A DNA stretch of 64,000 bases from an uncultured Acidobacteriota bacterium (GTDB taxonomy: Bacteria; Acidobacteriota; Vicinamibacteria; Vicinamibacterales; UBA2999). The stretch is from NCBI GenBank assembly GCA_963815285.1, contig CAWFGB010000005.1, positions 423,919-487,918 on the forward strand, written 5' to 3'. The notes beneath the pieces are model-generated. The model saw only the letters and a program-made list of their open reading frames with translations. It searched no databases and had not been told where the DNA came from. Made by a program: the position numbers and the translations under genes. Below are positions 2,066 through 56,891 of the stretch, piece by piece (the stretch's first letter is position 1; each line of letters opens with the position of its first letter).

Positions 2066-2329
2066 GGACCTACTCCCTGGCAGGCATCTTATTACTGGTT
2101 GCCCTCGCGCGCTCACGTGCGACTACACCACTCTATAACCACTCGCGGCTCGAGGCGTTGTGGCGCGAGCAAATTCTGGACCGGCACGGTTGTCCTCCCG
2201 ACGGGACGCTGCGGGGCTGCGTAGGACCTGGGCCCATCACAGATGCCCCCTTCGGTGGACGCTGGGTTTCGGAGGTGTGTCCGGCATCTATCCCCAGCGA
2301 AGGCGCCGCGAATAAGGCAAAATAGGGTG

Positions 2330-2944: not shown

Positions 2945-3217
2945 CGATCGGTCGGCGCCGCGCGCGCGAAGGGCTGTAGTATGATCCAAACAGCCCATGT
3001 TGAAAGGTTTCACACACGCGCGTCTTGCTTGCGGCTGCCGCGTGTCATTTCGCGAAGGCACCACCGGCAGCCCAGTCACGGTCGTGGTCGATCAGCCGGC
3101 GCCGGGCTGCATCAATCCTCTCCACGTAAAGGGTCTTCCGCTCTACGACTACCGCGAAGCGCTGCGTCCCTCGACGCGGCTCGGGCCTGTGCTCGACGCG
3201 GACTTCGAAGAAGAAAA

Positions 3218-3382
3218 CTAGCGGGGTTTTTCGTCGTTCAGGCGGCCCGCTTCCCGAAGCGTGCGGCGGAGGACGAACTCGATCTGCGCGTTCAGGCTGC
3301 GCAAGTCGTCGTCCGCCCACCGCTGCATCGCCTCTAGCAGCTTCGGGTCGATCCGGAGAAGAAACGCCTTCCGATCTGACAT
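3218..3382 (-). CDS. Small Arc/ribbon-helix-helix-type DNA-binding protein (54 aa)
   Basis: My own translation gives MSDRKAFLLRIDPKLLEAMQRWADDDLRSLNAQIEFVLRRTLREAGRLNDEKPR. The beta-strand (FLLRI) followed by two helices is typical of RHH/Arc proteins. The ATG lies 5 nt after the SPFH stop codon, so the two are likely co-transcribed. At under 60 aa it is absent from the ORF track. Confidence 0.6.
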   Translation of the reverse strand: MSDRKAFLLRIDPKLLEAMQRWADDDLRSLNAQIEFVLRRTLREAGRLNDEKPR

Positions 3383-3386
3383 CGGC

Positions 3387-4256
3387 CTACTGATAGATGG
3401 TGCCCGTGTTCAGGATCGGCTGGGCGCCGCGCTCCCCGCAGAGCACCACGAGCAGGTTGCTCACCATCGCGGCCTTGCGCTCGTCGTCGAGTTGCACGAT
3501 CTCCTTCTGCGACAGCATGTCGAGCGCCATTTCGACCATGCCGACGGCTCCCTCGACGATGCGCTGTCGTGCCGCGATGATGGCGCCGGCTTGTTGACGC
3601 TGCAGCATGGCCGCGGCAATTTCGGGCGCGTAGGCGAGATGGCTGATGCGCGCCTCGATGACATCCACGCCCGCCTTGGCAAGGCGCTCCTGAATCTCTC
3701 GCTTGAGATGATCGGCGACCGCGTTAGTGTGGCCGCGCAGCGAGATGAGATGCTCGTCGTGCGCGTCGTAGGGATAGCTCGTCGTCAGATTGCGCAGCGC
3801 CGATTCGGACTGCACGTGCACGTAGTTTTCGTAGTCGTCCACCTCGAACACGGCCTCCGCCGTTTCGACCACTTTCCAGACGACGACGGCGGCGATCTCG
3901 ATGGGGTTGCCGTCGCTGTCGTTGACCTTGAGCCGGCCGCTCTCGAAGTTGCGCACGCGCAATGAGACGGCTTTCTTCATCAGCAGCGGGTTGGCCCAGC
4001 GCAGGCCCTGCACTTTCGCGGTGCCGCTGTAGGCGCCGAACAACTGCAGCACCTTCCCCTGATTCGGGTGGACCATGAAGGCGCCGAACATCAGGAACGT
4101 GATCGCGGTGAGGCCGATCGACGTCAGGATGATGGAGACAGGGTTTCGCGCCTGAATCGCCGTGACGAGGAGCCAGATGAGCGCGCCTTCCGCCACGAGC
4201 AGGGTGAGCAGGACAGGGATACCGGGCAGGCCGTTGTATTCGCGTTCGCGAATCAT
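3387..4256 (-). CDS. SPFH/band-7 (stomatin/prohibitin-like) domain membrane protein
   Basis: 289-aa ORF with two N-terminal TM helices followed by an SPFH-like core ([30 protein letters not shown] ... [27 protein letters not shown]). A perfect SD (AAGGAGGAA) lies 8 nt upstream of the ATG. Confidence 0.9.
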
Positions 4257-4315
4257 GGGGGCGTTCCTCCTTGAGATAGCTAAGTGATATCATTTTGCTA
4301 GCTCGAGAGTCAAAT

Positions 4316-4379
4316 TACGCAGATTCTTGGGGGATTTCGCAGAATCTGGTATCCGCAGATTGCGCAGATTACGCAGATT
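4316..4379. repeat. Array of 5 CGCAGAWT units (left arm of the inverted bracket around the GxxExxY gene)
   Basis: The units tacgcagatt, ttcgcagaat and tccgcagatt-gcgcagatt-acgcagatt are read directly. The reverse complement AATCTGCG occurs 4 times at 5557-5600. Confidence 0.85.
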
Positions 4380-4388
4380 CTCTGCTTC

Positions 4389-4556
4389 CCTCACCTCGCC
4401 TCTTTTCTCCCCATCGCCTCGCCTCACCTCACGCCACATCACCTTGCCCGCATCACCTCGCCTCGCCTCGACCTCACCTCACTCACCTGACTCATCTCAC
4501 TCATCTCATCTCACCTCACCTCACCTCACCTCACCTCGCCCTCGCCTCGTCGCTCC
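4389..4556. repeat. C/T-rich low-complexity microsatellite (TCACC/TCGCC units, including a perfect (TCACC)x5 at 4511-4535)
   Basis: Read directly. It translates to SPHLTSPHLTSP-type strings in track ORFs 4295..4642 and 4327..4953, which I regard as spurious. Confidence 0.85.
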
Positions 4557-4796
4557 TTCTCTGGGCCTTGGCTGTGCTGTGCTTCGCTTCATTTCAGTTC
4601 CAGCCGGCGCCATCTCTAACCTCCAACGGCATGGCAACTTGATTCCCAACGCCTCTCATTGTTCTAGTTCGCAGAAAGTGCCACGACGAGAGGTTCAGTT
4701 CGTCGCAGGAACTGAAATTGTCCGCGAGGCCTGGCCGCGAGATCATCGGAATCGCGCCTGGATAGCGACGGCACGCCGGCTGCACATGGTGGCGCC

Positions 4797-5225
4797 ATGG
4801 AGACCAATCATCGCGATCCACAGACCTACGCGATCATCGGTGCGGCGATGGAGGTGCATCGGGAGTTGGGATGCGGATATCTCGAGCCGGTGTATGTCGA
4901 AGCGCTCGAGATCGAGTTGTATGCGCGCCGCATTCCGTACCGCCGCGAAGTGAACTTGCCCATCACGTACAAAGGGCACCTGCTGAAAAGGTTCTATCGA
5001 GTGGACTTCATCTGTCACGACGAGGTGCTGGTCGAACTCAAAGCACTCCAGTCGCTCGGGCCGATCGAGGAGGCACAGCTAATCAACTACCTCTGCGCCG
5101 CCAGACGCGCCCGCGGTCTGCTGCTCAACTTCGGCACGAGGAGCCTGCAGTATAAACGTCGCGTGTGGCGGTACGAACCGGAGAACCCGGCACCCGGTGA
5201 GGGGCCTGAGGCATCGAGTAGGTGA
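4797..5225 (+). CDS. GxxExxY family protein (PD-(D/E)XK nuclease-like fold)
   Basis: METNHRDPQTYAIIGAAMEVHRELGCGYLEPVYVEALEIELYARRIPYRREVNLPITYKG...RVDFICHDEVLVELKA. The G-YL-E-PV-Y motif and the D...ELK core are characteristic of this family. Confidence 0.85.
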   Translation: METNHRDPQTYAIIGAAMEVHRELGCGYLEPVYVEALEIELYARRIPYRREVNLPITYKGHLLKRFYRVDFICHDEVLVELKALQSLGPIEEAQLINYLCAARRARGLLLNFGTRSLQYKRRVWRYEPENPAPGEGPEASSR

Positions 5226-5252
5226 GCGCGTTTGAGCGATGGGTTATCGAGC

Positions 5253-5392
5253 CGGTCCCTGCGCGACGACGCACGGCCTGTCCCTGCGCGCGACGAAGCA
5301 CGGTCTGTCCTGCGCGACGCTGTCCCTGCGCGAACTGTCTCCGCGCGACGACGCACGGCCTGTCCCTGCGTGACGCACGGCCTGTCCCCGCG
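5253..5392. repeat. About 7 tandem degenerate copies of a CTGTCCCTGCGCG-containing unit of about 20 nt
   Basis: gacgcacggcctgtccctgcg recurs, read directly, immediately 3' of the GxxExxY stop. Confidence 0.8.
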
Positions 5393-5430
5393 TGAATGCG
5401 TGGCGCACCGCCCCTGAGCCGTAATGGATT

Positions 5431-5555
5431 ATTGAGCCGCAGTCGGCCATTGAGTGGCGAGCCACAATCGCATTGAGCGGCGGTCGGTCGGCGATTGAGC
5501 TGCGGTCGGTCGCTAATTGAGCCGCGGTCCTGGCAATTGAGCCGCAGACAAACCG
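5431..5555. repeat. Six tandem copies of an ATTGAGC(N)GC-GGTCGG unit of about 20-22 nt
   Basis: attgagccgcagtcggcc / attgagtggcgagcc.. / attgagcggcggtcggtcggcg / attgagctgcggtcggtcgcta / attgagccgcggtcctggca / attgagccgcagacaaaccgc. Confidence 0.8.
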
Positions 5556-5556
5556 C

Positions 5557-5600
5557 AATCTGCGCAATCTGCGCAATCTGCGGATAATCCTCAATCTGCG
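5557..5600. repeat. Array of 4 AATCTGCG units (right arm, inverted relative to 4316-4379)
   Basis: caatctgcg-caatctgcg-caatctgcg ... tcaatctgcg. It ends 4 nt before the stop codon of the EEP gene. Confidence 0.85.
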
Positions 5601-5603
5601 TAA

Positions 5604-6335
5604 TCAAAACCGAATCCGCAAATCCGCCACCAGCGGGAGATGATCGGACGCGATCTTGGCGAGGCGGTCCCGGGGCAGCCATACCTTGTCGATCTCGACG
5701 CGAGCTCCCTCGTAATAGATGTGATCCAGGTGCACGACGGGGAAGAAGCCAGGGTAGGTTCGCTTGCGTTGGAGGTGCTTGGTGAGGTCGATGCTGTGCA
5801 GCTTCTCCGCGAGCACGTCCGTCGTCAGCCCGCGCGCCCATTCGTTGAAGTCGCCGAGGACAATCTTGGGGCCGACGACGCGACGGTCGTGGACCGAGGT
5901 CGCGAGCTTGCGGGCTTGTTCCCGGCGTTCGTACAACGCGGTCCCCAGATGCACGTTGTAGAAGTGCAGGATGGCGCTCTCGCCGACTTCCAGATCGACG
6001 CGTTGGGCCAGACGCGGTTCGCAGGTCTTCCAGCTCAAGTCGTACTGCTGGTGATGCTTGACCGGAAAGTGCGAGAGCACGACGTTGCCAAAAAGCGCGT
6101 TGCGAAAATGACGCGTGGGTGCCATCACCCAGCCCATGCCCAACGCCGCGCCGATTTCGGCGGCGTGCCCGGGCTTGAGCGGACTGGCGCCAACGACTTC
6201 CTGCAGCGCGATGACGTCCGCGTTGATCGAGGCCAGCACCGCCGCGATGCGCTCCGGTCGGGTGCGACCGTCGAGACCGCGGCAGCGGTGCACGTTATAG
6301 GTGACCACCCGAAGGGTGACTTCTTGCGGCGACAT
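5604..6335 (-). CDS. Endonuclease/exonuclease/phosphatase (EEP) family protein
   Basis: LRVVTYNVHRCRGLDGRTRPERIAAVLASINADVIALQEV ... GDFNEW ... SDHLPLVADL are the canonical EEP motifs. Confidence 0.9.
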   Translation of the reverse strand: MSPQEVTLRVVTYNVHRCRGLDGRTRPERIAAVLASINADVIALQEVVGASPLKPGHAAEIGAALGMGWVMAPTRHFRNALFGNVVLSHFPVKHHQQYDLSWKTCEPRLAQRVDLEVGESAILHFYNVHLGTALYERREQARKLATSVHDRRVVGPKIVLGDFNEWARGLTTDVLAEKLHSIDLTKHLQRKRTYPGFFPVVHLDHIYYEGARVEIDKVWLPRDRLAKIASDHLPLVADLRIRF

Positions 6336-6344
6336 CGAGTCTGG

Positions 6345-6647
6345 TCAGTCGAGGTCGAAACCGCGCAGCGGCTTGGAAATCGGCTCTTTGTTCGCTTCCT
6401 TGAGCGCCTCCTCGAACCGTTTCGACAGTGCGTCCCCGCGGGTCTTGTGGTCCTGGACCGACTGCTCGAAGATGGCATTCCGGCGCGCTTCCTGCTCAGC
6501 CAGGATGCGCTGGGCCTCGCCCAGTTCCGGCCGGTTTGGATTAGGCGGCTCGCGGTGCTCGATGACGCGACCCAGATTCGTGTCCACCACCAGCACGGCA
6601 TTGCAGCATGGGCAGGTGAGTTCGAGTTCGCTTTTCAAGCGGGCCAT
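6345..6647 (-). CDS. Hypothetical protein with a short N-terminal Cys cluster (CPCC) and a charged helical C-terminal half
   Basis: 100-aa ORF with good G/C third-position bias, located 9 nt upstream of the EEP gene on the same strand. I did not recognise a family. Confidence 0.5.
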   Translation of the reverse strand: MARLKSELELTCPCCNAVLVVDTNLGRVIEHREPPNPNRPELGEAQRILAEQEARRNAIFEQSVQDHKTRGDALSKRFEEALKEANKEPISKPLRGFDLD

Positions 6648-6666
6648 GGCAACAGCGTAGCTTATA

Positions 6667-7590
6667 ATGCGCGCTATGAAACGAGCGCTGGTGCTTGGAG
6701 CAGTGGTCGTTGTCGGGGCCCTGTCGGTGGCCGTAGCGGCATCTCAGCAATCCACTGAGAAGCCGAAATTGATCGAGGTCGATAAGCTTCGCCCCAACCT
6801 GTTCGTGCTGCGCGGCGGCGGCGGCAACACCGGCGTGTTCATCACGACCAAGGGGGTGGTGGTGGTGGACTCCAAGAACCCCGGGTGGGGTCAGCCGATC
6901 CTCGACAAGATCAAGGAACTGACGCCGAACCCGATCACCCACCTCATCAATACCCACACGCATGGCGACCACGTCAGCGGCAACGTCGAATTCCCGACGG
7001 CCGTCGAGATCGTCGCCCAGGCCAATACCGCCGCCAACATGAAGGAGATGCGCACGGTCACCGGCTTCAAGCCAGGAGGGCCCAACATCTTCACGGAAAA
7101 CAAGGGCCGCGGGTTACCCAAGCGCACGTTCACCGACCGGCTTACCATCGGCAGCGGCGCCGATCAGGTCGATCTCCACTACTTCGGACGCGGGCATACC
7201 AACGGCGACGCCTGGATCGTCTTCCCGTCCCTCCAGGTCGCTCACGCCGGGGACATCTTCTCGGGCAAAAACCTGCCCTTGCTCGATGCCAACAACGGCG
7301 GCAGCGGGCTCGAGATCGGGGACACGCTGGCCAAAGCCGCCGCCGGCATGCCGAAGGTGGAGACCATCATCACCGGTCACAGCACCCAGATGACGATGGC
7401 GGATCTCAAGGAATATGCGCAGTTCAATCGCGACTTCGCGAACGCCGTGCGGGAAGGGAAAAAGGCCGGGCGGAGCGTCGATGAGATCGCCAAGAGTTGG
7501 ACCATTCCTTCGAGCTATGCGGGATACAGCCAGCCCCAGGCCGAAAGGCTGCGGTCGAACGTCGAGGTTGTCTACAACGAGATCAAGTAG
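6667..7590 (+). CDS. Secreted MBL-fold metallo-hydrolase
   Basis: INTHTHGDHVSGN carries the HxHxDH motif, with a later GHTNGD. The signal peptide is MKRALVLGAVVVVGALSVAVAASQQ. The true start may be the second ATG at 6676, since TATAAT at 6663-6668 overlaps the first ATG. Confidence 0.9.
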   Translation: MRAMKRALVLGAVVVVGALSVAVAASQQSTEKPKLIEVDKLRPNLFVLRGGGGNTGVFITTKGVVVVDSKNPGWGQPILDKIKELTPNPITHLINTHTHGDHVSGNVEFPTAVEIVAQANTAANMKEMRTVTGFKPGGPNIFTENKGRGLPKRTFTDRLTIGSGADQVDLHYFGRGHTNGDAWIVFPSLQVAHAGDIFSGKNLPLLDANNGGSGLEIGDTLAKAAAGMPKVETIITGHSTQMTMADLKEYAQFNRDFANAVREGKKAGRSVDEIAKSWTIPSSYAGYSQPQAERLRSNVEVVYNEIK

Positions 7591-7618
7591 GGAGTCCGGC
7601 CCTCGGCGGCGGGGAAGG

Positions 7619-7648
7619 AGGCCGGATCGGCTGGTCCGGTCTTTTTTT
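7619..7648 (+). terminator. Rho-independent terminator of the MBL hydrolase gene
   Basis: The AGGCCGGA-tcggctgg-TCCGGTCT stem (one G-U pair) is followed by TTTTTT. Confidence 0.7.
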
Positions 7649-7923
7649 GTCCTTCCAGGCACTGAACCCACCGGTTCCAGGCCGTATCAGGTTGGCATCG
7701 GGCACCTTTCTGACGCGAATCATGTTCGTCCCCACATTCGTATATCCAAGCAGTAGGTTTGCTGGTAGGCTATGTCCTTCCATTACGTGTCGCATGTGGC
7801 GCATCAAGTTCTTGACGAGTGTCACGATGTCGCTCTCAAAATGACAACATGGACTTCCATCCGCCAATTCGCCCCGGCGGGATGGTTTCTAATCTTGGTG
7901 GGCTATCGCTGAGGATTCTCCCC

Positions 7924-10900
7924 ATGCAGAAAACCGCCGCTCCTCCACTCGCCTTTGCTTCGGTCGCGCACGTCTGTCACCGCGGCCTCCTTGCTATTGG
8001 GCTCGTCGCTTCAAGTGGTCAGATGGGCGGTCAGACCCCGGCTCCCACAGCGTGCAGTACTCCCGGGGATACTTGATAACCGGTGATTACGTTGTCGAGT
8101 GGCGTGGACCTGCCGGCAGGTGGGGGTCTGGCACCATCAATTTCAACCCACGTTGAATAACACGGTGCCGGCTAACGCCGAGGTGATTGCGGCCTGCGCA
8201 ATTTGGGAAACCATCGAGCCAGTGGCCAACACAACATTTGCCGGCGCGGAGTTCCGCGGTCAACCAATCATGTCGCCAAGGTGTTTCGTGTGACGTCGCT
8301 TCCGGGAACTGGCTCCAGTTGCTGGGGGAGCAGCGGCAATGCCAACAAGTTTCTGACGACCTTCCGCGTCGACCTGCTCCACTGCTGCCGAAGAGTACGA
8401 CGTGGACGGCAAGTGGACCGGCACCTATCTGGTCAACGACGCCGATCTGATCGCTAATGGCCTGCCGGCAGGGCACACCATCAACCTGCCACGATTGGAA
8501 TGGCAACACCACGACGACGGCTGCGGGCGCCACGATCGTGATGGTGTGGCGCAAAGCCGATGAACCGCTGCGAAAGATCGTCATGTACGACGGCGCGGCG
8601 ATACAGGCGCAAGGCGCGATCACGACGCACACGCTCGCCGGGTTCTACAGGGCCGCCTCGGCGTCCCCCGCGAAGCTCACGTACGTCGTCGGCACCGGCG
8701 CCGACAACCCGAACGACCGGGTATTTTTCAATGGCGCGGTCGTCGGGACGAATTCTTTTATCAGGCCCATCGGCGCCGGATCGGATCGCGGCTGGTCCAA
8801 TCCCACTTTCAATATCACTGCGCAGCAGATGGCGAACCTTCCCGTCGACCCCAACTTTGGCCAGGTGGTGACGACGCGGGTGGATCACGGGCAGAACGCG
8901 CAAGCCTCCACGCCGTACCAGTGCATCTCCGTGGCCTCGATCATCTTCAGCACGACGGTCGCGGACGGGGACAACGACGGGTTGCCCGACGGCATCGAAG
9001 AGGCGGCGAACGGGTTGAAAGATCCACCAACCCCCGCGTTCCCGACGGGTGAGCCGCTGCCGAACCTCAACGCCATGGGTGCGCTAATCAACCAGCGAGA
9101 TCTCTTCGTCGAGATCAACGCCACCAAGGCTCCGGCGAACACAACCTATGGAGCCCCGGATGCTCCCTACAATTCGACCATCGTGTCGGTGACCGATACC
9201 CAGGGCCACGATCACATGCCTCCGCATGAGGTCCTGAAGATGGTCGGAGACGCCTACGCGGCCGCCCCCAATGGTGGCATCAAGGCGCATTTCGATGTCG
9301 GCGATCTGGCCGTGTATCGCGGCCTGGGCCCCGACTATGCGTGTCCGGTGGGCGAGCTGGACTGCGACAAGTATTTCGTTCCGACGGCGCACCGCGCGGC
9401 GGGGAACGCATCGAAGAGCGCGCTTGCGAAGACTGCCAGTTCTTCGCCTTCCCGGGAACGATAGGGTGGCCCTCGGCTTCCGCGCGTATCGGGATGCTGT
9501 GGTCGCCGCAGACGGCGCGGAGGTCACCACCCTCGCCGAAGTGCAGGCCGGCGCTCCCGAGGAGGGCGAACTGCGCCGCCGCTTTGATCGCAACCGGCAG
9601 CCGTATATCCACTATCAGATTTTCGCGCACGCGCGCGGCAGGGCGCTGTCGGCCTTCCCGTGTCTCCAGGGCACGGGTCAACAGACCCAGGAAACGGGCT
9701 ACGATCCGGCCAACCCGGGGGTATGCGCCAGCAAAGCAACCCGCGGTTTCATGTGCCGACGAGCACGTCAGGCATCTCAGAACTCCCCGGCGGCAGCCAC
9801 ATGGTGTCGCTCGGCCTGTGGGACACCGACAAGTTCGTCGCCTCGAAGTCCATGCAGGCCTCGACGTTTTTCCACGAGCTCGGGCACGGCCTCAATCTGT
9901 GGCACGGCGGCAAGGCAGCCATTTTCGGCAATGCCACGACACCCACACAGGTGGAACCCAACTGCAAGCCGAACTACCGAGCTCGATGAGCTACCTGTTT
10001 CAGGCCCACGGCTTGGTAAATAACGCGGGCCAGCTCAACATCGATTACTCGGGGACGCTGCACAACCCGCTCGACAAACGTCGCTCAGCAATGGGCTTTC
10101 TCCCGGCCCGAAATATCGCGCGGCGTGGTTTGCACCGCTTGACAGTGCCTTGGCCACGGGCGGGACTGCGGCAAAGCGGTTCTGCAACGGCGCGACCTTC
10201 GATCCGGATCACCACCCGCACCGATGGCTCGCGTGCTGGCAGCAGCACGTCCGCCCTCCTCCACTGGGACGGGGATAGCGTCCACCCGCCTGGGAAGGCC
10301 ACCTCACAAATCTGGACATCAACTTCGACGGCACAGAAACCGAACTGGTGGGGTTCAACGATTGGAACAATGTCCGCCTCAATCAGATCAGTGCCGGCCG
10401 CACGCCGCGCGTGTTTCGGAGTGCCAACGAGTTGCGGCTGGACTACGCGTCCGGCGACCTGCTCGAGTTCGGCACCGGTGATCTGCTCGAGTTCGGTGCC
10501 GGCGACTTACTGGAGTTCGGCGCTGGATCCCACATCGTTCACCTCGGCACGGGCGATTTCTTCAGCTACCTCTCGGGGGACCTGCTCGAGTTCGGTACGG
10601 GTGACCTGCTCGAATTCGGCACCGGTGATCTCCTGGAGTTCGGCACGGGCGTCATGATGCTCGTCCACGCGGACGCAAACGACCCGACAACGGCGATCTG
10701 CTCGAATTCGGCACCGGTGATCTGCTCGAATTCGGCACCGGTGATCTGCTCGAATTCGGCACGGGCGACCTGCTCGAGTTCGGCACGGGCGACCTGCTCG
10801 AGTTCGGCACCGGTGACTTGCTCGAATTCGGCGCGGGAGATTTGCTGGAGTTCGGCACAGCGGCAACCCAGGATATTGACTTGAACACGGCGATCGAGCT

Positions 10901-29662: not shown

Positions 29663-29746
29663 GATCACAGGGTTCCGATCACAGGGTTCCGATCACAGCG
29701 TTCCGGCCACAGCGTTCCGGCCACAGCGTTCCGGCCACAGAGTTCC
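29663..29746. repeat. Six tandem 14-nt units (GATCACAGGGTTCC x2, GATCACAGCGTTCC, GGCCACAGCGTTCC x2, GGCCACAGAGTTCC)
   Basis: Read directly. It begins 15 nt after the BlaR1-TonB stop. Confidence 0.9.
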
Positions 29747-38776: not shown

Positions 38777-38830
38777 GCCTGGGGCCTGACGCCTGACGCC
38801 TGACGCCTGGGGCCTGGGGCCTGGGGCCTG
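38777..38830. repeat. Heptamer tandem repeat: GCCTGGG, (GCCTGAC)x3, (GCCTGGG)x3, GCCTG
   Basis: Read directly. It lies in the divergent intergenic region between the LigD-PE gene and the symporter gene. Confidence 0.9.
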
Positions 38831-41761: not shown

Positions 41762-42604
41762 ATGCATCGATCGCGTCGTCTTCTCGCTTCGTGTGCCGTT
41801 GCCCTCTTCGCGTTCGGATCCACTGCGTTCGCCCAGTTGCCGTTGCAGCCGGCCCGCGATGCCGGGCAGGGTGTCACGCCCGCCTTCGAAGGCTGGTACG
41901 AGAACGGCGACGGCTCGTTCAGCCTGCTCGTCGGCTACTTCAATCGCAATTTGAAAGAGACGCTCGACATCCCGGTCGGCCCGAACAATCGCATCGAGCC
42001 AGGCGGTCCCGATCAGGGGCAGCCCACGCACTTCTTGCCACGCCGCGGATGGGGCGTCTTCACCATCAAGGTGCCCAAGGACTTCGGCGACAAGCGCCTG
42101 ACGTGGACCATCACCGCCAACGGACAAACCAACTCGATACCGGTCGGCCTCATCAAGGGCTATCAAGTCGAGCCCTTCAAGGAGGCTGCGCAAGGAAACG
42201 AGCCGCCGCGGCTGCAGGTCGATACGAAGGGGCAGGCATTGTTCGGGCCTCCCACGGGTATCGCGGCCACGCTGAACGCCACCGTTGGCCAACCGCTCAC
42301 CATCAGCGGCATCGCCACCGACGGACAAGCCAACGATCCGGATCTGACCCCGGCCCAGTTGAAGCAGCCCCCACTGACGCTCTTCCTGAGCAAGCACCGC
42401 GGCCCCGGCGTCATCACGTTCGACAACGACCGTCCTCGCCCCGATGCCGATGGCAAGTTCGCCGCGACTGCGACCTTCGCGGCGCCGGGCGAGCACATCG
42501 TTCGGGTGCAGGCCAACGATCGATCGGGCGACGGCGGCGGCGGCTTCCAGTGCTGCTGGACCAACGTGTATGTGAAAGTGAATGTGACTGGCGGGACGAA
42601 GTAG
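41762..42604 (+). CDS. Secreted hypothetical protein
   Basis: Signal peptide MHRSRRLLASCAVALFAFGSTAFAQ, with GGGAG 6 nt before the ATG and good codon bias. The C-terminal GDGGGGFQCCWTNVYVKVNV was not recognised. Confidence 0.7.
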   Translation: MHRSRRLLASCAVALFAFGSTAFAQLPLQPARDAGQGVTPAFEGWYENGDGSFSLLVGYFNRNLKETLDIPVGPNNRIEPGGPDQGQPTHFLPRRGWGVFTIKVPKDFGDKRLTWTITANGQTNSIPVGLIKGYQVEPFKEAAQGNEPPRLQVDTKGQALFGPPTGIAATLNATVGQPLTISGIATDGQANDPDLTPAQLKQPPLTLFLSKHRGPGVITFDNDRPRPDADGKFAATATFAAPGEHIVRVQANDRSGDGGGGFQCCWTNVYVKVNVTGGTK

Positions 42605-42644
42605 GCGGGTCGGCCAGGTAGCCGGGTAGGGCTGGTTAGCCGGG

Positions 42645-42681
42645 TAGGGCTGGTTGGGGCGGGCCAGCCCAACCAGCCCTA
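42645..42681 (+). terminator. 14-bp perfect hairpin (TAGGGCTGGTTGGG / CCCAACCAGCCCTA), terminator-like without a U tract, preceded by a 17-nt direct repeat
   Basis: The arms are at 42645-42658 and 42668-42681 with a 9-nt loop. GCCGGGTAGGGCTGGTT is duplicated at 42621 and 42639. Confidence 0.6.
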
Positions 42682-42712: not shown

Positions 42713-44110
42713 TTGAGCGTTCTTCTTATTTCCACGTACGATCTTGGCCGCCAGCCATTCGGGCTCGCGTCGCCAGCGGCGTGGCTGAAGCGTGCAGGAC
42801 ACCAGGTCCTCACGCGCGACCTCTCACGCGACAAGCTGCAGGAAAACGACGTCACCGGCGCCTCGCTGGTCGCTTTCTATCTGCCCATGCACACGGCGAC
42901 TCGCCTGGCTTTGCCCGTAATCGAGCACGTCCAGCAAATCAACCCTTCCGCACACATCGCGGCCTACGGGTTATACGCTCCTCTCAGCGAGCCGCTGTTG
43001 CGCGCGCACGGGGTGGGCACCGTGCTCGGTCCGGAAGCCGAGAACGACTTGGTGGAACTGGCCATGTCGCTTGGGCGCGAGGCGCCGGAGTCTGTCGAGT
43101 GGCGCGTCGCCGAATCAAGCCCCGCTCGAGCGCCACATCTTCCGCGGCTCCCGTTCATCATCCCTGAGCGCAGCGGATTACCCGGGGCGAGTCACTATGC
43201 GCGCCTGCACATGCCGGACGGTTCGCGACGGGTAGTCGGCGCCACGGATGCGACACGCGGCTGCAAGCACCGGTGCCGGCATTGCCCTATCGTTCCCATC
43301 TACGACGGTCAATTTCGTGTGGTCCCCATCGACGTCGTGCTCGCCGATATCGACCAGCAGCTTGCCGCCGGCGTGGAGCACATCACCTTTGGCGATCCCG
43401 ATTTCTTCAACGGTCCCACTCATGCGCGACGGATCGTCGAAGCCTTGCCTCAACGCCATCCGGCGCTGACCTACGACGTCACGGTCAAGGTCGAGCATCT
43501 CCTGAAGCACCGCGATCTCTTGCCGGTGCTGGCGCGCACTGGATGCCTGTTCGTCACCAGCGCCGTCGAGTCGTTCGACGACGACGTTCTCGCGAAGCTC
43601 GAGAAAGGCCATACCCGCGCGGACTTCCTGGACGCGCTGCGCCATTGTCGTGAGGCGGACATCAATCTGGTGCCGACGTTCGTGGCTTTCACTCCTTGGA
43701 CTACTCTCGCGACCTATCGCGATCTGCTCGCGACCGTCGATGCCTTAGGTTTGGTCGAACACGTCTCGCCTGTGCAGTGGGGGCTGCGCCTGCTGGTGAC
43801 TGAAGGCTCGCGGTTGCTCGAACTTGCCGACATCCGGCAGCGGGTGGCCGCGTTCGATTCTCGGACCCTGACGTACCCATGGCGCCACGACGACCCGCGC
43901 GTCGATGCGCTGCAGGCCGTCATCATGCGGGCGGTCGGCGTGCGCGCGGTTGGCTCGCGCGCGGAAGTGTTTGCCGCGGTGTGTGAGTTGGCCGGACTGA
44001 CCGATCGGGTGACGCAATCGGACGTGCCGGACCGCGCCACGATTCCCTACTTGGAGGAACCTTGGTACTGTTGAGTGGAGCCCAGTGCAGAGCAGGTGGC
44101 TCTGATTTAG
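42713..44110 (+). CDS. B12-binding-domain-like radical SAM protein, probably a selenoprotein (UGA 44072-44074 read as Sec, giving a C-U-V-E-P tail; the conventional end would be 44074)
   Basis: GCKHRCRHCPIV carries the CxxxCxxC radical SAM cluster. The N-terminal MSVLLISTYDLGRQPFGLASPAAWL resembles the B12-binding-like domain. The ORF ends ...EEPWYC-TGA-VEPSAEQVALI-TAG, with a hairpin 13 nt after the TGA. The start is TTG. Confidence 0.75.
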
Positions 44111-45381
44111 GAACCAAGCGTGTCCTCCTGCTTGCCACGACGACCGGTTACCAAACCCGCGTCTTTGGTGAGGCGGCCGAACGTCTTGGCGTCAAACTCG
44201 TCTTTGCGACGGATCGATGCGACCAGCTCGAAGACCCCTGGTGGGACGGGGCTATCCCGGTCCGTTTTCACCAGGAGGCCACGACGGTCGAAGCCATCAT
44301 CACCGAGGCGGAACGGTCACAGATCGACGGCCTGCTCGCCGTCGGTGATCGGCCAACCGTTGCCGCAGCCTATGCGGCACGATTGCTTGGACTGGCAGGC
44401 AACCCGCCCGACGCGGTCAAGGCGGCCCGCGACAAGCGCCTGACGCGCGAGCGGTTACGCGAGGCTGGCCTCCACGTTCCGACCGTGACCGTGCTGTCAC
44501 GGGTGGACGATCCAGGCACGGTTGCCCCACGACTGACGTATCCCGTCGTTCTGAAGCCCAGTGTGCTGTCGGGGAGCCGCGGCGTCATCCGCGCGGATGA
44601 TCCTCAGCAGTTCATCGCCGCGTGCACGCGATTACAGCGGCTACTGGAGGCCGGAGACGTGCGCGCGATGAAAGATCCCGCCGCCGACACCATCCTCGTC
44701 GAATCGTTCATTCCCGGCCGGGAGTTCGCGCTCGAAGGGCTGTTGGAGCAGGGGACGCTCCAAACCCTGGCGATCTTCGAGAAGCCCGATCCGCTCGACG
44801 GTCCGTATTTCGAGGAGACGATCTACATCACGCCGCCCCGCATCAGCGCCGGCGTGCCGGAGCTGATTCATCAGGCGATTGCCGAGGCGACTGCGGCCCT
44901 CGGTCTTCATCATGGCCCGATCCACGCCGAGTGCCGGGTGAACGATCACGGCGTTTTCGTTCTGGAGGTGGCCGCCCGACCGATCGGCGGCTTGTGCGCG
45001 CAGGCCCTGACATTCGCCAACAACAAGGGCGAGAACGCTGGCCTCGAGGAACTGCTCCTGCGTCACGCGCTCGGAGAATCGGCGACGCCATGGCACCTCG
45101 CCGGCGGCGCGACCGGCGTGATGATGATTCCCATTCCCGAGGGCGGTGTGTATCGGCGCGTCGAAGGTACCGAGCGCGCTCGGCAGGTCCCGCACGTCTG
45201 GGACCTCCGCATTACGGCCAAGCCAGACCAAATTCTCGTGCCGTTGCCGGAAGGCGCCAGCTATCTGGGATTTATCTTTGCGCGGGCAGAGTCGGCCGAC
45301 GTGGTCGAACGGTCACTACGGGACGCCCATGCCGCGTTGACCTTCGTGATCGACCGCGCCCTCCCGCTGGCGGGCCGCTAG
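44071..45381 (+). CDS. ATP-grasp domain ligase
   Basis: KRVLLLATTTGYQTRVF is a pre-ATP-grasp region, followed by YPVVLKPSVLSGSRGVIRADD, VESFIPGREFALEG and HAECRVNDHGVFVLEVAARPIGG. The only in-frame start candidates are TTG 44062 and TTG 44071, both inside the tail of the radical SAM gene. Confidence 0.8.
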   Translation: MSGAQCRAGGSDLGTKRVLLLATTTGYQTRVFGEAAERLGVKLVFATDRCDQLEDPWWDGAIPVRFHQEATTVEAIITEAERSQIDGLLAVGDRPTVAAAYAARLLGLAGNPPDAVKAARDKRLTRERLREAGLHVPTVTVLSRVDDPGTVAPRLTYPVVLKPSVLSGSRGVIRADDPQQFIAACTRLQRLLEAGDVRAMKDPAADTILVESFIPGREFALEGLLEQGTLQTLAIFEKPDPLDGPYFEETIYITPPRISAGVPELIHQAIAEATAALGLHHGPIHAECRVNDHGVFVLEVAARPIGGLCAQALTFANNKGENAGLEELLLRHALGESATPWHLAGGATGVMMIPIPEGGVYRRVEGTERARQVPHVWDLRITAKPDQILVPLPEGASYLGFIFARAESADVVERSLRDAHAALTFVIDRALPLAGR

Positions 45382-45710
45382 CTTTTGGATTGTTGCGGTA
45401 CGTAGCCGGGAGGGAGCGCGGCGCCTTCGCCGAAGAAGAAGTCCTCCATGTGTTTGAGGATCAACTCCTGGGCCTCTTTCTGCCACGGCATAAGGCGGTA
45501 TTCGTTGAGGATCATCTTCTGACGCTCCTCCCAGAGCTGCCAGGCCTGAGCGGAGACGTTCTCGAAAATACGCTGACCGACCTCCCCGGGCCAGGGGGCA
45601 GCGTCCAGGCCGGGAAGTTCCTGTTGGAATTTGACGCAAAACACCTTGCGCCCGCTGTGATTGCCGATCGGCTTTTCCGAAGGGCCGGTGGGACCGCCGC
45701 ACATGCTCAT
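45378..45710 (-). CDS. yggX: YggX-type Fe(2+)-trafficking/oxidative-damage protection protein
   Basis: VFCVKFQQELPGLDAAPWPGEVGQRIFENVSAQAWQLWEERQKMILNEYRL parallels the E. coli YggX core. The start is uncertain and could be the internal GTG just before FCVKF. Confidence 0.75.
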   Translation of the reverse strand: MSMCGGPTGPSEKPIGNHSGRKVFCVKFQQELPGLDAAPWPGEVGQRIFENVSAQAWQLWEERQKMILNEYRLMPWQKEAQELILKHMEDFFFGEGAALPPGYVPQQSKS

Positions 45711-45973: not shown

Positions 45974-46234
45974 GTGAACGAAACGCGCAAAGAACGTCGA
46001 GGATTCGCATCCATGTCACCGGAAAAGCAGCGTGAGATCGCCAGCAAGGGTGGTCGCGCCGCGCACCAGAAGGGTACCGCCCACGAGTGGTCGTCCGACG
46101 AAGCCCGGGACGCTGGCCGCAAGGGCGGAATGGCGAGTCGCGGTGGCCGTGGCAAGTTGCCGACGTCTGGCAACTCGGACGCCAGCACGGTTGACACCAG
46201 CGTCGACGATTCCACGCCAGAGCCTGCAGCCTAG
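45974..46234 (+). CDS. KGG-repeat general stress protein
   Basis: GFASMSPEKQREIASKGGRAAHQKG...ARDAGRKGG contains KGG motifs. The GTG start has GAAGGGAG upstream. Confidence 0.8.
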   Translation: MNETRKERRGFASMSPEKQREIASKGGRAAHQKGTAHEWSSDEARDAGRKGGMASRGGRGKLPTSGNSDASTVDTSVDDSTPEPAA

Positions 46235-46390: not shown

Positions 46391-48412
46391 CTACATCGTC
46401 ACTTTCTCAATCTGCACGCGTGCGTCGTTGAAGCAGGCGCCGCCACCCAGGTCGGTTAACGCGTCGGGCACCAACGTATTCGACGTGAATCCGTTGGCGA
46501 TGTGACGCCGCCAGACCCCTTTCGGCATTGAGACCGTGCCCTGCTTCACGAGCGGGGTGACACGCACGGGCAGCCGTACTTCGCCCAGCCCGTTGAACAT
46601 CCTCACAACCTCGTTGTTCTGAATATCGCGTGCCGCGGCATCCTCTGGGTGGACGTCGAGGACCACGGTGGGTCGCGGCAGCTCCCCGAGCGTCGAACTC
46701 ACGGTCCGTTCGCTGGCTGGTGAAATCAGCGCGAGGGGGTACTGATCCGTTCCGGGATCGGGCTGAAATCCATACAGACCGAGCGGCGCTTGGCGATCTA
46801 ATTCCGCCGGAAAGAGGTGGACCTTCTGATCTGGCGTCTGCGGCATCACATCCACGAACTGCACCGGCCGGCCATCGAAGGGCGCCGTGGCTTTCGTGTG
46901 CTGCCGGATTTCGTCGCCGTGCGGCTCAGGGAGTCGTCCAAGCACGTCGAGCATCATCTCGACATCGCCGCTCGGGTCGCCCTCGCGTTCGAGGTCCAAC
47001 CGCCGAATCAACTCGGCAAACAGTTCAACGTTGGGCCGTGATTCTGCCACCTGCTCGATCACGGGACGCGCCAGCTGCATGGTGATTGGCCCGTACGACT
47101 TGACGAGATCGTAGTGTTCCAGAAAGGTGGTCGCCGGAAGCACGACGTCCGCATACAGGGCGGTATCGGTCAACACCTGATCGTGGACGACGGTGAAAAG
47201 GTCGTCTCGTTCCAGTCCCTTGAGCACACGCCCCTGATCGGGCATCGTGACCGCAGGATTGCAGTTGTACACGAACAGCAGTTTGACCGGCGCCGCATCG
47301 TCGAGCAGCGCGCGCCCGAGATGGTTCATGTTGATGGCGCGAGTGTTGGCTTCAGGGTCGCGAATCCACGATCGAGTGATGTTCCACGAGGCGGAGTTGC
47401 TCATCGAATAACCGCCGCCCCGGACGCCGAACTTGCCGGCGACAGCGGGCAGCGCGAGCACAGCGGCCGCGGCGCTGCCGCCATTGCGGTTGCGCTCGAG
47501 GCCCCAGCCGCACTTGACCAGCGCAGGCGAGGTCGTGGCGTACATCTCCGCGAAACGCTCCAGCTGCTCGACCGGAACCGCGCTTTCTTGCGCGGCGCGT
47601 TCGAACGTCCACGGCGCGGCCTTGTCGCGGAGCTGCTCGGCACCGGTCGTGTGATCCTTCAGAAACGCTTCGTCTGCACGCCCTGTCTCGAAGAGGTGAT
47701 GGTGGACGGCGAGCGCCACGGCCAGGTCTGTACCCGGACGAATTTGAAGGAACAGATCCGCCTGCCTGGCGATGGCGGTCGCGCGCGGATCGATGACGAT
47801 CACCTTGGTACCCCGTTCCCGAGCCTGCTTCAGGAACGGCATGATGTGGATACCCGAATGCCCGGGATTGACACCCCAGACGACGATCAGTCTGGCCTCG
47901 GGATAATCCTGGTAGCTGACCGACGCCATCTTCCCGTAGAGACCCTGATTGGCGGCACCGGTCGGTGCGGCACACACCGTACGCAGCAGCCGCGATGCCC
48001 CGAGACGTCGAAAGAACGTCGCATCGGTCGTGTCCTGCGTCAGCAGGCCATTCGATCCGCCGTAGGAGACCGGAAGAATTGCCTCAGCCCCGAATGCGGC
48101 GCTGATGTCGCGCATCCTCGCGGCCACGAGTTCCAGCGCTTCGTCCCAGCTGACGCGGTGGAAGCGCCCGGTCCCCTTCGGGCCAGTGCGCACGGCCGGG
48201 TGCAGGATGCGGTCATCACCGTACACGCGTTGATCGAAATGCCTGACCTTGGCGCAGATGTAACCGTTGGTGATCTCGTTCTTCGGCGACCCGTCGATGC
48301 GATGGACGCGGCCGCCGCGCAGCGTCACGACCAGCGTGCAGGCATCTGGGCAGTCGAGCGGACAGGCGGTCTCGACGTGGGATTCAGGAGGCGCAGGAGC
48401 TGGGCGCGGCAT
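46391..48412 (-). CDS. Molybdopterin (bis-MGD) oxidoreductase, catalytic subunit
   Basis: The N-terminal TACPLDCPDACTLVV carries the Cys cluster of the 4Fe-4S Mo/W domain. 673 aa with a C-terminal molybdopterin dinucleotide-binding region. Confidence 0.9.
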   Translation of the reverse strand: MPRPAPAPPESHVETACPLDCPDACTLVVTLRGGRVHRIDGSPKNEITNGYICAKVRHFDQRVYGDDRILHPAVRTGPKGTGRFHRVSWDEALELVAARMRDISAAFGAEAILPVSYGGSNGLLTQDTTDATFFRRLGASRLLRTVCAAPTGAANQGLYGKMASVSYQDYPEARLIVVWGVNPGHSGIHIMPFLKQARERGTKVIVIDPRATAIARQADLFLQIRPGTDLAVALAVHHHLFETGRADEAFLKDHTTGAEQLRDKAAPWTFERAAQESAVPVEQLERFAEMYATTSPALVKCGWGLERNRNGGSAAAAVLALPAVAGKFGVRGGGYSMSNSASWNITRSWIRDPEANTRAINMNHLGRALLDDAAPVKLLFVYNCNPAVTMPDQGRVLKGLERDDLFTVVHDQVLTDTALYADVVLPATTFLEHYDLVKSYGPITMQLARPVIEQVAESRPNVELFAELIRRLDLEREGDPSGDVEMMLDVLGRLPEPHGDEIRQHTKATAPFDGRPVQFVDVMPQTPDQKVHLFPAELDRQAPLGLYGFQPDPGTDQYPLALISPASERTVSSTLGELPRPTVVLDVHPEDAAARDIQNNEVVRMFNGLGEVRLPVRVTPLVKQGTVSMPKGVWRRHIANGFTSNTLVPDALTDLGGGACFNDARVQIEKVTM

Positions 48413-48503: not shown

Positions 48504-49748
48504 ATGAGCGCTCGTCCGCACGTGGTCATTGTTGGAGGTGGGTTTGCGGGGCTCGATGCCGCTCGCGCCCTGCGGCGTGCGGACGTGAACATCACGGTGG
48601 TCGATCGCCACAACCACCACGTCTTTCAGCCGCTGCTTTATCAGGTCGCCACCGCTGCCTTGTCCCCCGGCGATATTGCTTCGCCCATTCGATGGATCCT
48701 TCGCCGGCAGCCAAACGTCCGCGTGCTGCTCGCGACCGTCTCGGCGGTAGATGCCGCCGGTAAAGCCGTGCTGTTCGACGATGGCACGCGGTTGCCGTTT
48801 GATTATTTGATTCTGGCGCCGGGGGCGGCGCATTCCTATTTCGGAAAGGACGACTGGGCCGAGCACGCCCCCGGGTTGAAGACACTCGACGACGCCCTCG
48901 CGATGCGGCGCCGGATGCTGCTCGCGTTCGAGGAAGCGGAGCGCGAGGACAACCCCGATCGTCGGCGGCACCTGCTGACCTTCGCAATCGTCGGCGGAGG
49001 CCCCACCGGCGTCGAGCTGGCCGGCGCCCTGGCCGAGATTGCCCGTCACACGCTACGCGAGGAGTTCGACACCATCGACCCCGAGTCTGCGCGCATCGTT
49101 CTGATCGAAGCCGGGCCGAGCATCCTGCCGAGCTTTCCTGATTCGCTCCGCGCCGCGGCGCGCCGCGCGCTGCGCAAGCTCGGTGTCGAGGTGTGGGAGC
49201 AGGCCAAGGTGACCGCGATCGAAAGCGAAAGCGTCACCGTCGGCGACGCCCGTGTAGCGGCACACACCGTCATCTGGGCGGCGGGGGTGGCAGCTTCGCC
49301 GCTCGGCGCGTCACTCGGAGGAGCCCTCGACCGTGTCGGGCGAGTGATCGTGGACGAGGATTTGTCGGTCCCGGGCCATCCCGCGATTTTCGTGGCCGGC
49401 GATCTTGCCGGCTTCACGCACCAGGGCGGCCAGCAATTGCCCGGTGTCGCGCAGGTTGCCAAGCAGCAGGGGGCGCATGCCGCGCGGAATGTGCTGCGCC
49501 GAATCGGACAGCAGCCGACGCCGGCCTTCCACTATCGCGATCCCGGCAACATGGCGACCATTGGGCGCGCCCATGCGATTGCCGATTTCGGGTGGGCGCG
49601 CTTCTCTGGATTCGTTGGCTGGCTGCTGTGGCTCTTCGTCCACATCCTGTTTCTCATCGGATTCCGGAATCGGCTGTCGGTGTTGCTGCAGTGGGGCGCG
49701 TCGTACCTGACGTATCAGCGCAGTGTCCGATTGATTACCGGCAGGTAG
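48504..49748 (+). CDS. Type II NADH:quinone oxidoreductase (NDH-2)-like FAD/NAD(P) oxidoreductase
   Basis: HVVIVGGGFAGLDAA and FAIVGGGPTGVELAG form two Rossmann dinucleotide motifs. There is a C-terminal membrane-anchoring segment. Confidence 0.9.
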   Translation: MSARPHVVIVGGGFAGLDAARALRRADVNITVVDRHNHHVFQPLLYQVATAALSPGDIASPIRWILRRQPNVRVLLATVSAVDAAGKAVLFDDGTRLPFDYLILAPGAAHSYFGKDDWAEHAPGLKTLDDALAMRRRMLLAFEEAEREDNPDRRRHLLTFAIVGGGPTGVELAGALAEIARHTLREEFDTIDPESARIVLIEAGPSILPSFPDSLRAAARRALRKLGVEVWEQAKVTAIESESVTVGDARVAAHTVIWAAGVAASPLGASLGGALDRVGRVIVDEDLSVPGHPAIFVAGDLAGFTHQGGQQLPGVAQVAKQQGAHAARNVLRRIGQQPTPAFHYRDPGNMATIGRAHAIADFGWARFSGFVGWLLWLFVHILFLIGFRNRLSVLLQWGASYLTYQRSVRLITGR

Positions 49749-55973: not shown

Positions 55974-56891
55974 TCAGCGCGCGATCTTCGCCGGCAGCGC
56001 CTGGCGTGACAGCAGCGTCACGAACTCGCGCTGCCACTTCGGCTCGACACGGTCGCGCAGCGTGACTGCGGCCCAGGATCGGTAGACGCCGCGTTTGCCG
56101 ATCCTGACGGCCTTCACCGCGCCGGTCTTCAGCGCGGGCTCAATGGCCCACCTTGCCATCACGCTCACGCCGAGCCCGGCTTTGACCAGTTCCAGAATCG
56201 CCTCGGTCAGCGGCACCTGCGACACGCGTGCCGGCTCGACTCCCGCTGGCGCCAGGATGCGTGTGAACGTGTAGCTGTCGTGTCGATCGGCCGTGTAGAT
56301 AATCAGGTGTTCCTCGGCGAAGTCTATCGGTTCGATCCACGTCCGCTTCGCGAACGGATGCGTCGGCGCCACCACCGCCACCAGTTCGTCTTCGAAGAGC
56401 CGCACCGACTGCAAGCGCTTGTCGTCCACCTCGCTCGTGACGACCGCAAGATCAATCTGACCGTCGAGCAGGGCCTCGATCGGACGCTCCGTGGCGTTGA
56501 CCATGATCTGCACGTCCACGCCGGGATACTTTCGATGGAAGGCCTGCAAGAGCGGCGGCAGCCAGTGATAGCCGGTGTTGCACTGGGTGCACAGGCGCAG
56601 CACGCCCTTGCCGTTCTGCGACATCAGCTTGAGGTCTTCCTCGGCGCGGCCGATCTCGTCGAGGACCCGCTTGGCGGCGCCGAGCACGCGCTCGCCGGGC
56701 GGCGTCAGCACCATGCGCTTGCCAAGGCGGAGGAACAACTGGGTGCCGAGACGTGATTCGATATCACGGAGCTGGTGCGACAACGCGGACTGGGTGAGGT
56801 GTAACCGTTCGGCCGCGCGTGTCACGCTGCCGGTCGAGGCGATCTCGCTGACCAGCGAGAGGTGGCGAACTTCGAGGGTGGGCGAGGGCAC
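55974..56891 (-). CDS. LysR-family transcriptional regulator
   Basis: The N-terminal HTH is LSLVSEIASTGSVTRAAERLHLTQSALSHQLRDIE, followed by a LysR substrate-binding domain. Confidence 0.9.
   Translation of the reverse strand: MPSPTLEVRHLSLVSEIASTGSVTRAAERLHLTQSALSHQLRDIESRLGTQLFLRLGKRMVLTPPGERVLGAAKRVLDEIGRAEEDLKLMSQNGKGVLRLCTQCNTGYHWLPPLLQAFHRKYPGVDVQIMVNATERPIEALLDGQIDLAVVTSEVDDKRLQSVRLFEDELVAVVAPTHPFAKRTWIEPIDFAEEHLIIYTADRHDSYTFTRILAPAGVEPARVSQVPLTEAILELVKAGLGVSVMARWAIEPALKTGAVKAVRIGKRGVYRSWAAVTLRDRVEPKWQREFVTLLSRQALPAKIAR

Follow-up and report, generated by a model that had tools for sequence, protein, structure and literature searches.

The closest described relatives of the gene analysed here belong to two groups of radical S-adenosylmethionine (SAM) enzymes. 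One is the NCBIfam family NF040546, the "CUAEP/CCAEP-tail radical SAM (seleno)protein", which is placed among the few selenoproteins with a Cys-selenocysteine (CU) motif and termed uncharacterised (Haft & Gwadz, bioRxiv 10.1101/2022.07.06.499078). The other is ArsL. It cleaves the Cγ–S bond of SAM and transfers the 3-amino-3-carboxypropyl group to As(III) that its RCCLKC tail binds through three cysteines (10.1101/2024.02.01.577332; 10.64898/2026.04.29.721666), making the C–As bond of arsinothricin; without an acceptor, the 3-amino-3-carboxypropyl radical is quenched to 2-aminobutyrate (10.1101/2024.02.01.577332). Some Acidobacteria possess selenoproteins (PMC1794560). Here, we analysed a stretch of 64,000 nucleotides from an uncultured Acidobacteriota bacterium (contig CAWFGB010000005.1), referred to as the window, which carries a radical SAM gene with an in-frame UGA near its 3' end. 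This gene is very probably a member of NF040546 whose UGA is decoded as selenocysteine (Sec) by means of a downstream hairpin of the selenocysteine insertion sequence (SECIS) type. Since the family is already recognised, the recoding is not a discovery; it is a curated property that gave NF040546 its name.

Reading frame and family membership

As called, the open reading frame (ORF) spans 42713–44074, starts with TTG and has 453 codons, of which the last ones read ...IPYLEEPWYC before the TGA. Past the TGA, the same frame continues with GTG GAG CCC AGT GCA GAG CAG GTG GCT CTG ATT and reaches a TAG, so that the tail read past the UGA is VEPSAEQVALI (11 codons). The features of the gene are as follows.

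42713–44110 (+): coding sequence of the predicted radical SAM selenoprotein, 465 residues including Sec454, with a TTG start and TAG as the true stop
43262–43285 (+): CxxxCxxC motif C184-KHR-C188-RH-C191, the expected ligands of the SAM-cleaving [4Fe-4S] cluster
43544–43546 (+): codon of Cys278, an extra, family-specific cysteine
44069–44071 (+): TGT codon of Cys453, the invariant first residue of the C-U pair
44072–44074 (+): in-frame UGA, the putative Sec454 codon; TGA or TGC only in the orthologous column
44075–44083 (+): V-E-P, the conserved part of the tail, A-E-P elsewhere, with varying third codon positions
44088–44104 (+): SECIS-type hairpin, with stem 44088–44093/44099–44104 and loop AGGUG at 44094–44098
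44108–44110 (+): TAG, the predicted true stop of the selenoprotein, closing an extension of fixed length

On re-reading of the sequence, the positions that an earlier note on this DNA had given for the ORF end, the TGA, the tail, the TAG and the hairpin are all right. In an alignment with 18 homologues, the N-terminus MSVLLISTYDLGRQPFG agrees with the family consensus, and C184, C188, C191 and Cys278 are invariant. The three motif cysteines are kept also in the Thermomicrobium roseum member and in ArsL; Cys278 is present in T. roseum, and the corresponding residue of the Alicyclobacillus ArsL is Val. The only Pfam domain found on the protein is the radical SAM domain (PF04055, residues 181–319).

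For the hidden Markov model (HMM) search, the protein was translated through the UGA with Cys in place of Sec. Its residues 3–463 align with positions 1–467 of the 468 positions of NF040546, with a score of 599.5 bits (E = 3.9e-180), and the profile is covered to position 467 only when the tail is included. Because the extended protein exceeds the curated cutoff of 500 bits, the gene is assigned as a new member of this known, uncharacterised family of predicted selenoproteins. Close homologues of the window protein already bear the family name. The second-best family is ArsL (NF040542), whose score of 269.6 bits lies below the cutoff of 450. In species-representative genomes, NF040546 has at least 568 confirmed matches, and its members are mainly found in soil Acidobacteriota and Thermomicrobiales.

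The window tail reads C-U-V-E-P. It has the C, U, E and P of the family motif C-(U/C)-A-E-P, and the Ala is replaced by Val, a conservative departure of one residue that leaves the HMM assignment unaffected. The earlier note had recognised the family and called this tail a one-residue variant, and both points are borne out. Among 78 loci, Val follows the Sec position in two, namely the window and a 97%-identical relative (ENA ERZ25039531 contig_40188, 650 kb), and Ala follows in the other 76. The relative comes from an independent assembly and has the identical TGA and tail. Hence, the variant is real and particular to this lineage.

Conservation across the in-frame UGA

We took 80 orthologous loci from species-representative genomes. 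Nearly all of them are labelled Acidobacteriota (Vicinamibacterales, Bryobacterales and others); two carry Acidimicrobiia labels and three carry Bifidobacteriaceae labels. The site is readable in 73 loci, of which 61 have TGA and 12 have TGC directly 3' of the Cys codon, with neither TAA nor TAG in any. In all 60 fully alignable loci, A-E-P follows the TGA in frame, codon positions 1 and 2 being invariant and position 3 varying. Variation confined to third positions past the UGA is the signature of translated sequence. Of 64 TGA-type loci, 62 have an extension made up of the Sec codon and 11 others, and in at least 11 loci the stop of the extension overlaps the ATG or GTG of the next gene (ATGA/GTGA). 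This overlap is the usual arrangement for translational coupling, which implies that ribosomes reach the stop of the extended frame. The TGC-type genes have different tails. Eight of them have a short, unrelated one, AEPME plus two variable residues (e.g. AEPMESF), and a few others have an 11-residue tail resembling a decayed Sec-type tail. These differing tails indicate several independent switches between Sec and Cys.

The UGA also occurs outside the Acidobacteriota. The member from T. roseum DSM 5159 (TRD_RS12835, on megaplasmid NC_011961) reads ...SWFC-TGA-AEP..., and so do three more homologues of the Thermomicrobiales clade, whose labels include one Sphaerobacter and one Thermomicrobiales. 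The recoding proposed in the earlier note is thus consistent with what orthologues carry at this column, a Cys codon or UGA, and with the retention of the xEP tail.

The called ends of database homologues were read from the best 120 of the window protein and the best 120 of the T. roseum member. The Cys is present in all 240. As called, 120 of the former and 119 of the latter stop exactly at this Cys (...W[YF]C), so gene callers truncate the family systematically, as the earlier note had expected of standard callers. For annotation, the window protein should be lengthened to 465 residues from 453, residue 454 being Sec, and the same truncation affects the 239 homologues. The sole read-through entry among those listed, P0121 (ENA), is 99% identical to TRD_RS12835 and shows ...SWFCCAEPLEDPSGPVASQVRMVDQPLR; either it comes from a Cys-variant strain or Sec was entered as Cys by the source.

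The downstream hairpin

The hairpin consists of CAGAGC, the loop AGGTG and GCTCTG. Its perfect 6-bp stem starts 13 nt past the UGA, and the GGU of its loop lies 23–25 nt from the U of the UGA. Covariation was tested on an ungapped alignment of 60 TGA-type sites, with columns 44088–44093 set against columns 44099–44104. In the alignment, 90.7% of the stem cells are paired, compared with 38–51% when the 3' arm is slid by 1–3 columns. Double changes occur in 31 cells at four pairs, three of them within the 6-bp stem, and the resulting score was reached by none of 500 shuffles. Examples of compensatory change are GAGC/GCUC to GGGC/GCCC, GCGC/GCGC and GGCC/GGCC. Such changes recode residues, E to G, A or D and L to P or G. 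As the stem changes alter the encoded amino acids, the constraint acts on the RNA and not on the peptide. RNAalifold returns the identical stem from the alignment. Within the loop, none of the 60 sites departs from G at 44095 or from U at 44097, and the last base, a third codon position, is free to vary. The 42 nt after the codon have a mean minimum free energy of −14.6 kcal/mol in the TGA forms versus −8.6 in the TGC forms, in which the hairpin is weaker or absent.

The four Thermomicrobiales-clade members have a hairpin in the same register with other stems (GGACC/GGUCC, GCGGACC/GGUCCGC, CGAGCC/GGCUCG). Three of their loops are AGUCU or AGUUU, and that of T. roseum has GUC. These predicted hairpins are independent confirmation from a second phylum. 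The earlier note had read the hairpin as a SECIS element, and its conservation in both groups, with compensatory changes in the 60 TGA-type loci, agrees with this. An alternative pairing that the note had also raised, GGAGCC (44077–44082) with GGCUCU (44098–44103), did not hold up: it is paired only at the conserved A-E-P codons, two of its pairs are broken in 17–19 of the 60 sites, and its covariation score is no better than that of the slid controls. We infer that only C-U-(A/V)-E-P is the functional tail of the protein, and that the hairpin, not the protein, sets the following xxEQ[VL]AL[ILV].

Decoding of the UGA and alternative explanations

In the decoding proposed here, the UGA directly after Cys453 would be read as Sec, the hairpin with its A-G-G-U-G loop would act as a bacterial SECIS that recruits SelB with Sec-tRNA(Sec), and translation would continue for 11 codons and terminate at the UAG. 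The stop-like UGA almost certainly encodes selenocysteine, judging from the orthologous sequences. The comparison bears the signature of recoding and of selection on RNA structure, and from it we infer the dependence on SelB and the identity of the inserted residue.

Several results weigh against selenocysteine decoding. ARAGORN found no tRNA-Sec in the window and 85 loci, none of 46 window ORFs scanned with NCBIfam matched selA, selB or selD, and tblastn with Escherichia coli SelA, SelB and SelD gave zero matches in the window and all loci, with about 1 Mb of related flanks. Taken singly, the window hairpin is statistically indistinguishable from chance: a single-sequence fold of 60 nt is no better than dinucleotide shuffles (z = −0.16), and a perfect hairpin of at least 6 bp starts 8–20 nt downstream of 3.1% of all TGA triplets in the window. 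Moreover, the case for selenocysteine is built on sequence. The missing sel genes are expected for a 64-kb window and flanks if they are unlinked to the selenoprotein gene. It is the comparison with relatives, not the single sequence, that takes the predicted recoding well beyond chance.

If the UGA were a genuine stop, the protein would end at Cys453, and the conserved sequence and hairpin downstream would serve the ATP-grasp gene that follows, in regulation or in translational coupling. Every gene caller does terminate the protein there, TGA is the commonest ordinary stop in the window (it ends 22 of 45 genes, which means that the codon has no general reassignment), and the window ATP-grasp ORF has a TTG start overlapping the UGA. 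We nevertheless regard a stop as very unlikely. Twelve orthologues have TGC at the exact column and then A-E-P, no orthologue has TAA or TAG, codon-periodic conservation persists past the UGA, and the curated NF040546 model takes in the tail. In addition, the Thermomicrobiales-clade members retain UGA, AEP and hairpin with no ATP-grasp gene downstream. The TGA might be a sequencing error for TGC, or TGC might have been lost lately by an inactivating mutation, which would leave a pseudogene or truncated gene; only one base need differ. This reading is effectively refuted by the independent assembly with its identical TGA and tail and by the TGA in 60 other species, and its probability is close to nil.

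The UGA might also be recoded through the hairpin and SelB to Cys, by a tRNA(Sec)-like tRNA(Cys) of the selC* type, or be subject to partial readthrough with another residue. Bacterial tRNA(Sec)-like tRNAs charged with Cys have been described, as have unusual allo-tRNAs in Acidobacteria (PMC7609411), and the Cys-form orthologues show that Cys is functionally tolerated at the position. These Cys systems are rare, however, and with TGC one mutation away it would be odd for 61 of 73 species, and for members of a second phylum, to retain UGA and SECIS; NCBI curators regard NF040546 as a selenoprotein. We therefore give insertion of Cys or another residue only a slight chance, and prefer Sec.

The window was also searched for other traces of selenium use. 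No convincing second selenoprotein emerged from a scan for further ORFs split by an in-frame TGA. In each of 33 loci, the presumed metal-ligand column of the neighbouring molybdopterin oxidoreductase holds Cys rather than UGA, and the ResA-like protein at 2243–2944 has CGPC, not UGPC. The pyridine-nucleotide-disulfide oxidoreductase at 48504–49748 (+) has a weak likeness to TIGR03169 "Nterm_to_SelD" (104 bits, cutoff 310), and the LysR regulator at 55974–56891 (−) a weak likeness to the selenium-metabolism LysR family NF040786 (155 bits, cutoff 250). Both matches are below cutoff and are no evidence of selenium metabolism. One UGA-type radical SAM gene of the Thermomicrobiales clade is followed, after about 1 kb, by a seryl-tRNA synthetase gene (L090, 9517–10797), probably by coincidence.

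ATP-grasp partner and gene neighbourhood

The radical SAM gene is followed by these features.

44071–45381 (+): ATP-grasp gene of the L-amino-acid-ligase type, overlapping the radical SAM 3' end; its start is uncertain, TTG at 44071 or at 44062
45366–45382 (+): terminator-like hairpin and T-run at the end of the ATP-grasp ORF, from a consensus scan only
45378–45710 (−): convergent YggX-type oxidative-damage-protection (iron-trafficking) gene (NF003817, 118.6 bits, cutoff 74)
45974–46234 (+): KGG stress protein gene, downstream of the operon
46391–48412 (−): cytoplasmic molybdopterin oxidoreductase gene, downstream of the operon

The ATP-grasp protein has the Pfam domains ATP-grasp_4, LAL_C2 and ATPgrasp_N. 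Its best solved relative is 3VOT (BL00235), with E = 2.6e-36 over nearly the full length. BL00235 is a Met-X dipeptide ligase that makes Met-Gly and Met-Met (PMC6920838). Of the 80 loci, 69 contain the gene, which in about 67 cases lies directly downstream on the same strand; in the two exceptions it is more than 1 kb away, once on the opposite strand. Upstream of the conserved KRVLLLATTTGY, the only in-frame starts in the window are the two TTG codons. A start at 44071 would overlap the recoding site (U-UUG-A); in many relatives, the ATP-grasp start instead overlaps the stop of the extended frame. The terminator-like hairpin is the probable end of a two-gene operon.

Downstream neighbours in the 80 loci are the YggX-type gene in 64, the KGG stress protein gene in 53 and the cytoplasmic molybdopterin oxidoreductase gene in 35. 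By a noisy clustering of neighbourhood ORFs, downstream genes are conserved and upstream genes are not. The conserved neighbours, including the YggX-type gene, may be functionally linked to the operon or may merely reflect inherited gene order and shared ancestry. Its 64% G+C and an ADOP-family permease give the window an acidobacterial appearance.

In 33 of 75 related loci, the stop of the extended radical SAM frame is followed within a few nucleotides by short tandem repeats. Within the first ~100 nt after the stop (L001–L085), they mostly have 7-nt units, and the sequence differs per species; the Tandem Repeats Finder background across all fetched loci is about 0.2 such repeats per 250 nt. 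Intergenic tandem repeats are plentiful in the window (4417–4537, 29663–29746, 38777–38830 and 42601–42655), the last of which lies just upstream of the radical SAM start. At 10451–10858 (+), a 24-nt array (72-nt super-unit) of about 17 copies lies within the ORF 10348–10884 and encodes an 8-residue repeat; this ORF has no NCBIfam match.

Possible chemistry of the enzyme

By homology to ArsL, the radical SAM protein would bind a [4Fe-4S] cluster via C184, C188 and C191 and cleave SAM in an ArsL-like manner, with transfer of the 3-amino-3-carboxypropyl group. Its flexible Cys-Sec tail, perhaps together with Cys278, would hold a soft acceptor atom or act as a nucleophile, in parallel to the RCCLKC tail of ArsL holding As(III); Cys278 may serve as a third ligand. 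The product would be a methionine-like amino acid, which in the Acidobacteriota the co-transcribed ligase-type ATP-grasp enzyme would couple to a second one. We put forward only tentatively this ArsL-like transfer to an atom held or supplied by Cys278, Cys453 and Sec454, with ligation of the product in Acidobacteriota. In its favour are the place of ArsL as second-best family, the family-specific Cys278, the ATP-grasp gene directly downstream with a closest solved relative that makes Met-Gly and Met-Met, and the ATP-grasp gene that plasmid-borne ArsL clusters carry as well. A more specific version seems rather unlikely: the CU-tail enzymes would be ArsL-like transferases in which the three residues hold a soft element other than that of ArsL or are nucleophilic, a C–Se or C–metalloid bond would be formed, and the product would be ligated into a dipeptide. 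The product in soil Acidobacteriota could then be an analogue of methionine or phosphinothricin. If this version is true, there would be a widespread and undescribed pathway for organo-element amino acids.

Four observations weigh against the proposed transfer and ligation. The ArsL tail has three As(III)-binding cysteines, compared with two chalcogen residues in that of the window protein. The 46 scanned ORFs of the window include no arsM, arsR, or ACR3 or other arsenic transport genes. The ArsL clusters on Alicyclobacillus and Bacillus cereus plasmids also hold an ATP-grasp gene, but its product is only 25% identical to the window ATP-grasp protein. Finally, the Thermomicrobiales-clade members are solitary, in variable contexts and without an ATP-grasp partner; hence, the pairing is specific to the Acidobacteriota lineage.

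The main rival accepts the recoding and concerns the functional half only. Here, Cys-Sec would be a redox selenenylsulfide on a flexible arm that feeds electrons or a hydrogen atom to the radical SAM site. The vicinal C-U at the C-terminus has its counterpart in mammalian thioredoxin reductase, whose tail carries the redox centre Gly-Cys-Sec-Gly. The pair of chalcogen residues, as opposed to the three cysteines of ArsL, and the lack of metalloid genes among the scanned ORFs also fit such an arm, and a selenol could efficiently quench the 3-amino-3-carboxypropyl radical to 2-aminobutyrate, as ArsL does when it has no acceptor. On the other hand, the rare CU motif is concentrated in proteins linked to organometallic chemistry, such as HgcA, the SAO locus and MerT (10.1101/2022.07.06.499078), and ArsL, the nearest characterised homologue, binds its substrate with a Cys-rich tail. 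We hold the redox arm to be possible, with an estimate short of an even chance.

The two plasmid-borne ArsL clusters were inspected for their gene content. In both L082 (Alicyclobacillus pAACI01, 2118–7272) and L088 (B. cereus pBFR_2, 2139–8275), a conserved pair, consisting of a carboxymuconolactone-decarboxylase-family gene and the ATP-grasp gene, adjoins arsM or arsR, a transporter and a GNAT acetyltransferase, a composition that points to peptide-forming steps in some arsinothricin-type clusters.

The CUAEP family matters for two reasons. It is sister to the only canonical-fold radical SAM enzyme known for 3-amino-3-carboxypropyl transfer, ArsL, and it bears one of the rare Cys-Sec motifs tied to organometallic biochemistry. 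As T. roseum DSM 5159 is cultured and its member TRD_RS12835 is of the UGA type, recoding and chemistry are directly testable. Our analysis adds a covariation-supported SECIS consensus common to two phyla, residues after A-E-P that appear to be dictated by the RNA, a stop of the extended frame coupled to the next gene, the family-specific Cys278, and an Acidobacteriota-specific operon with a ligase-type gene.

Comparison with known systems

The window protein resembles NF040546 members in its full-length match above cutoff, the CxxxCxxC motif, the C-terminal C-U pair and the E-P after the pair. It differs in the tail, which is C-U-V-E-P rather than the C-U-A-E-P of the family.

ArsL (RCCLKC-tail, arsinothricin biosynthesis) is the closest characterised homologue, with about 33% identity over about 400 residues. 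The likeness covers the N-terminal domain, the radical SAM core and a short C-terminal tail that is Cys-rich and functionally essential. In the alignment with Alicyclobacillus ArsL, the window tail is ...WYC-U-VEP and not R-C-C-L-K-C. Compared with ArsL, the CUAEP-family protein has about 45 more residues before the tail and the extra invariant Cys278.

The downstream ATP-grasp protein has the ATP-grasp_4 and LAL_C2 domains of L-amino acid ligases (BL00235/3VOT, BacD, DdaF). Different from these ligases, it scores below every NCBIfam equivalog cutoff, and its link to a radical SAM gene is seen only in Acidobacteriota.

Like the bacterial SECIS of the E. coli fdhF type, the hairpin is in frame and shortly past the UGA, its stem is kept by covariation, and its apical loop has a G and a U roughly 23–26 nt from the UGA. 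In contrast to the fdhF type, it is a short, perfect 6-bp helix without a conserved bulged U, and only one codon (3 nt) separates it from the stop codon. Rfam matched neither the hairpin nor any other element in a permissive scan of 43500–44700 or in a scan of the whole window at gathering thresholds.

A vicinal Cys-Sec at or near the C-terminus is shared with thioredoxin reductase and with the CU motifs of the HgcA, SAO-locus and MerT selenoproteins. Their folds and chemistry are unrelated to those of the window protein, in which the predicted pair sits on a radical SAM enzyme.

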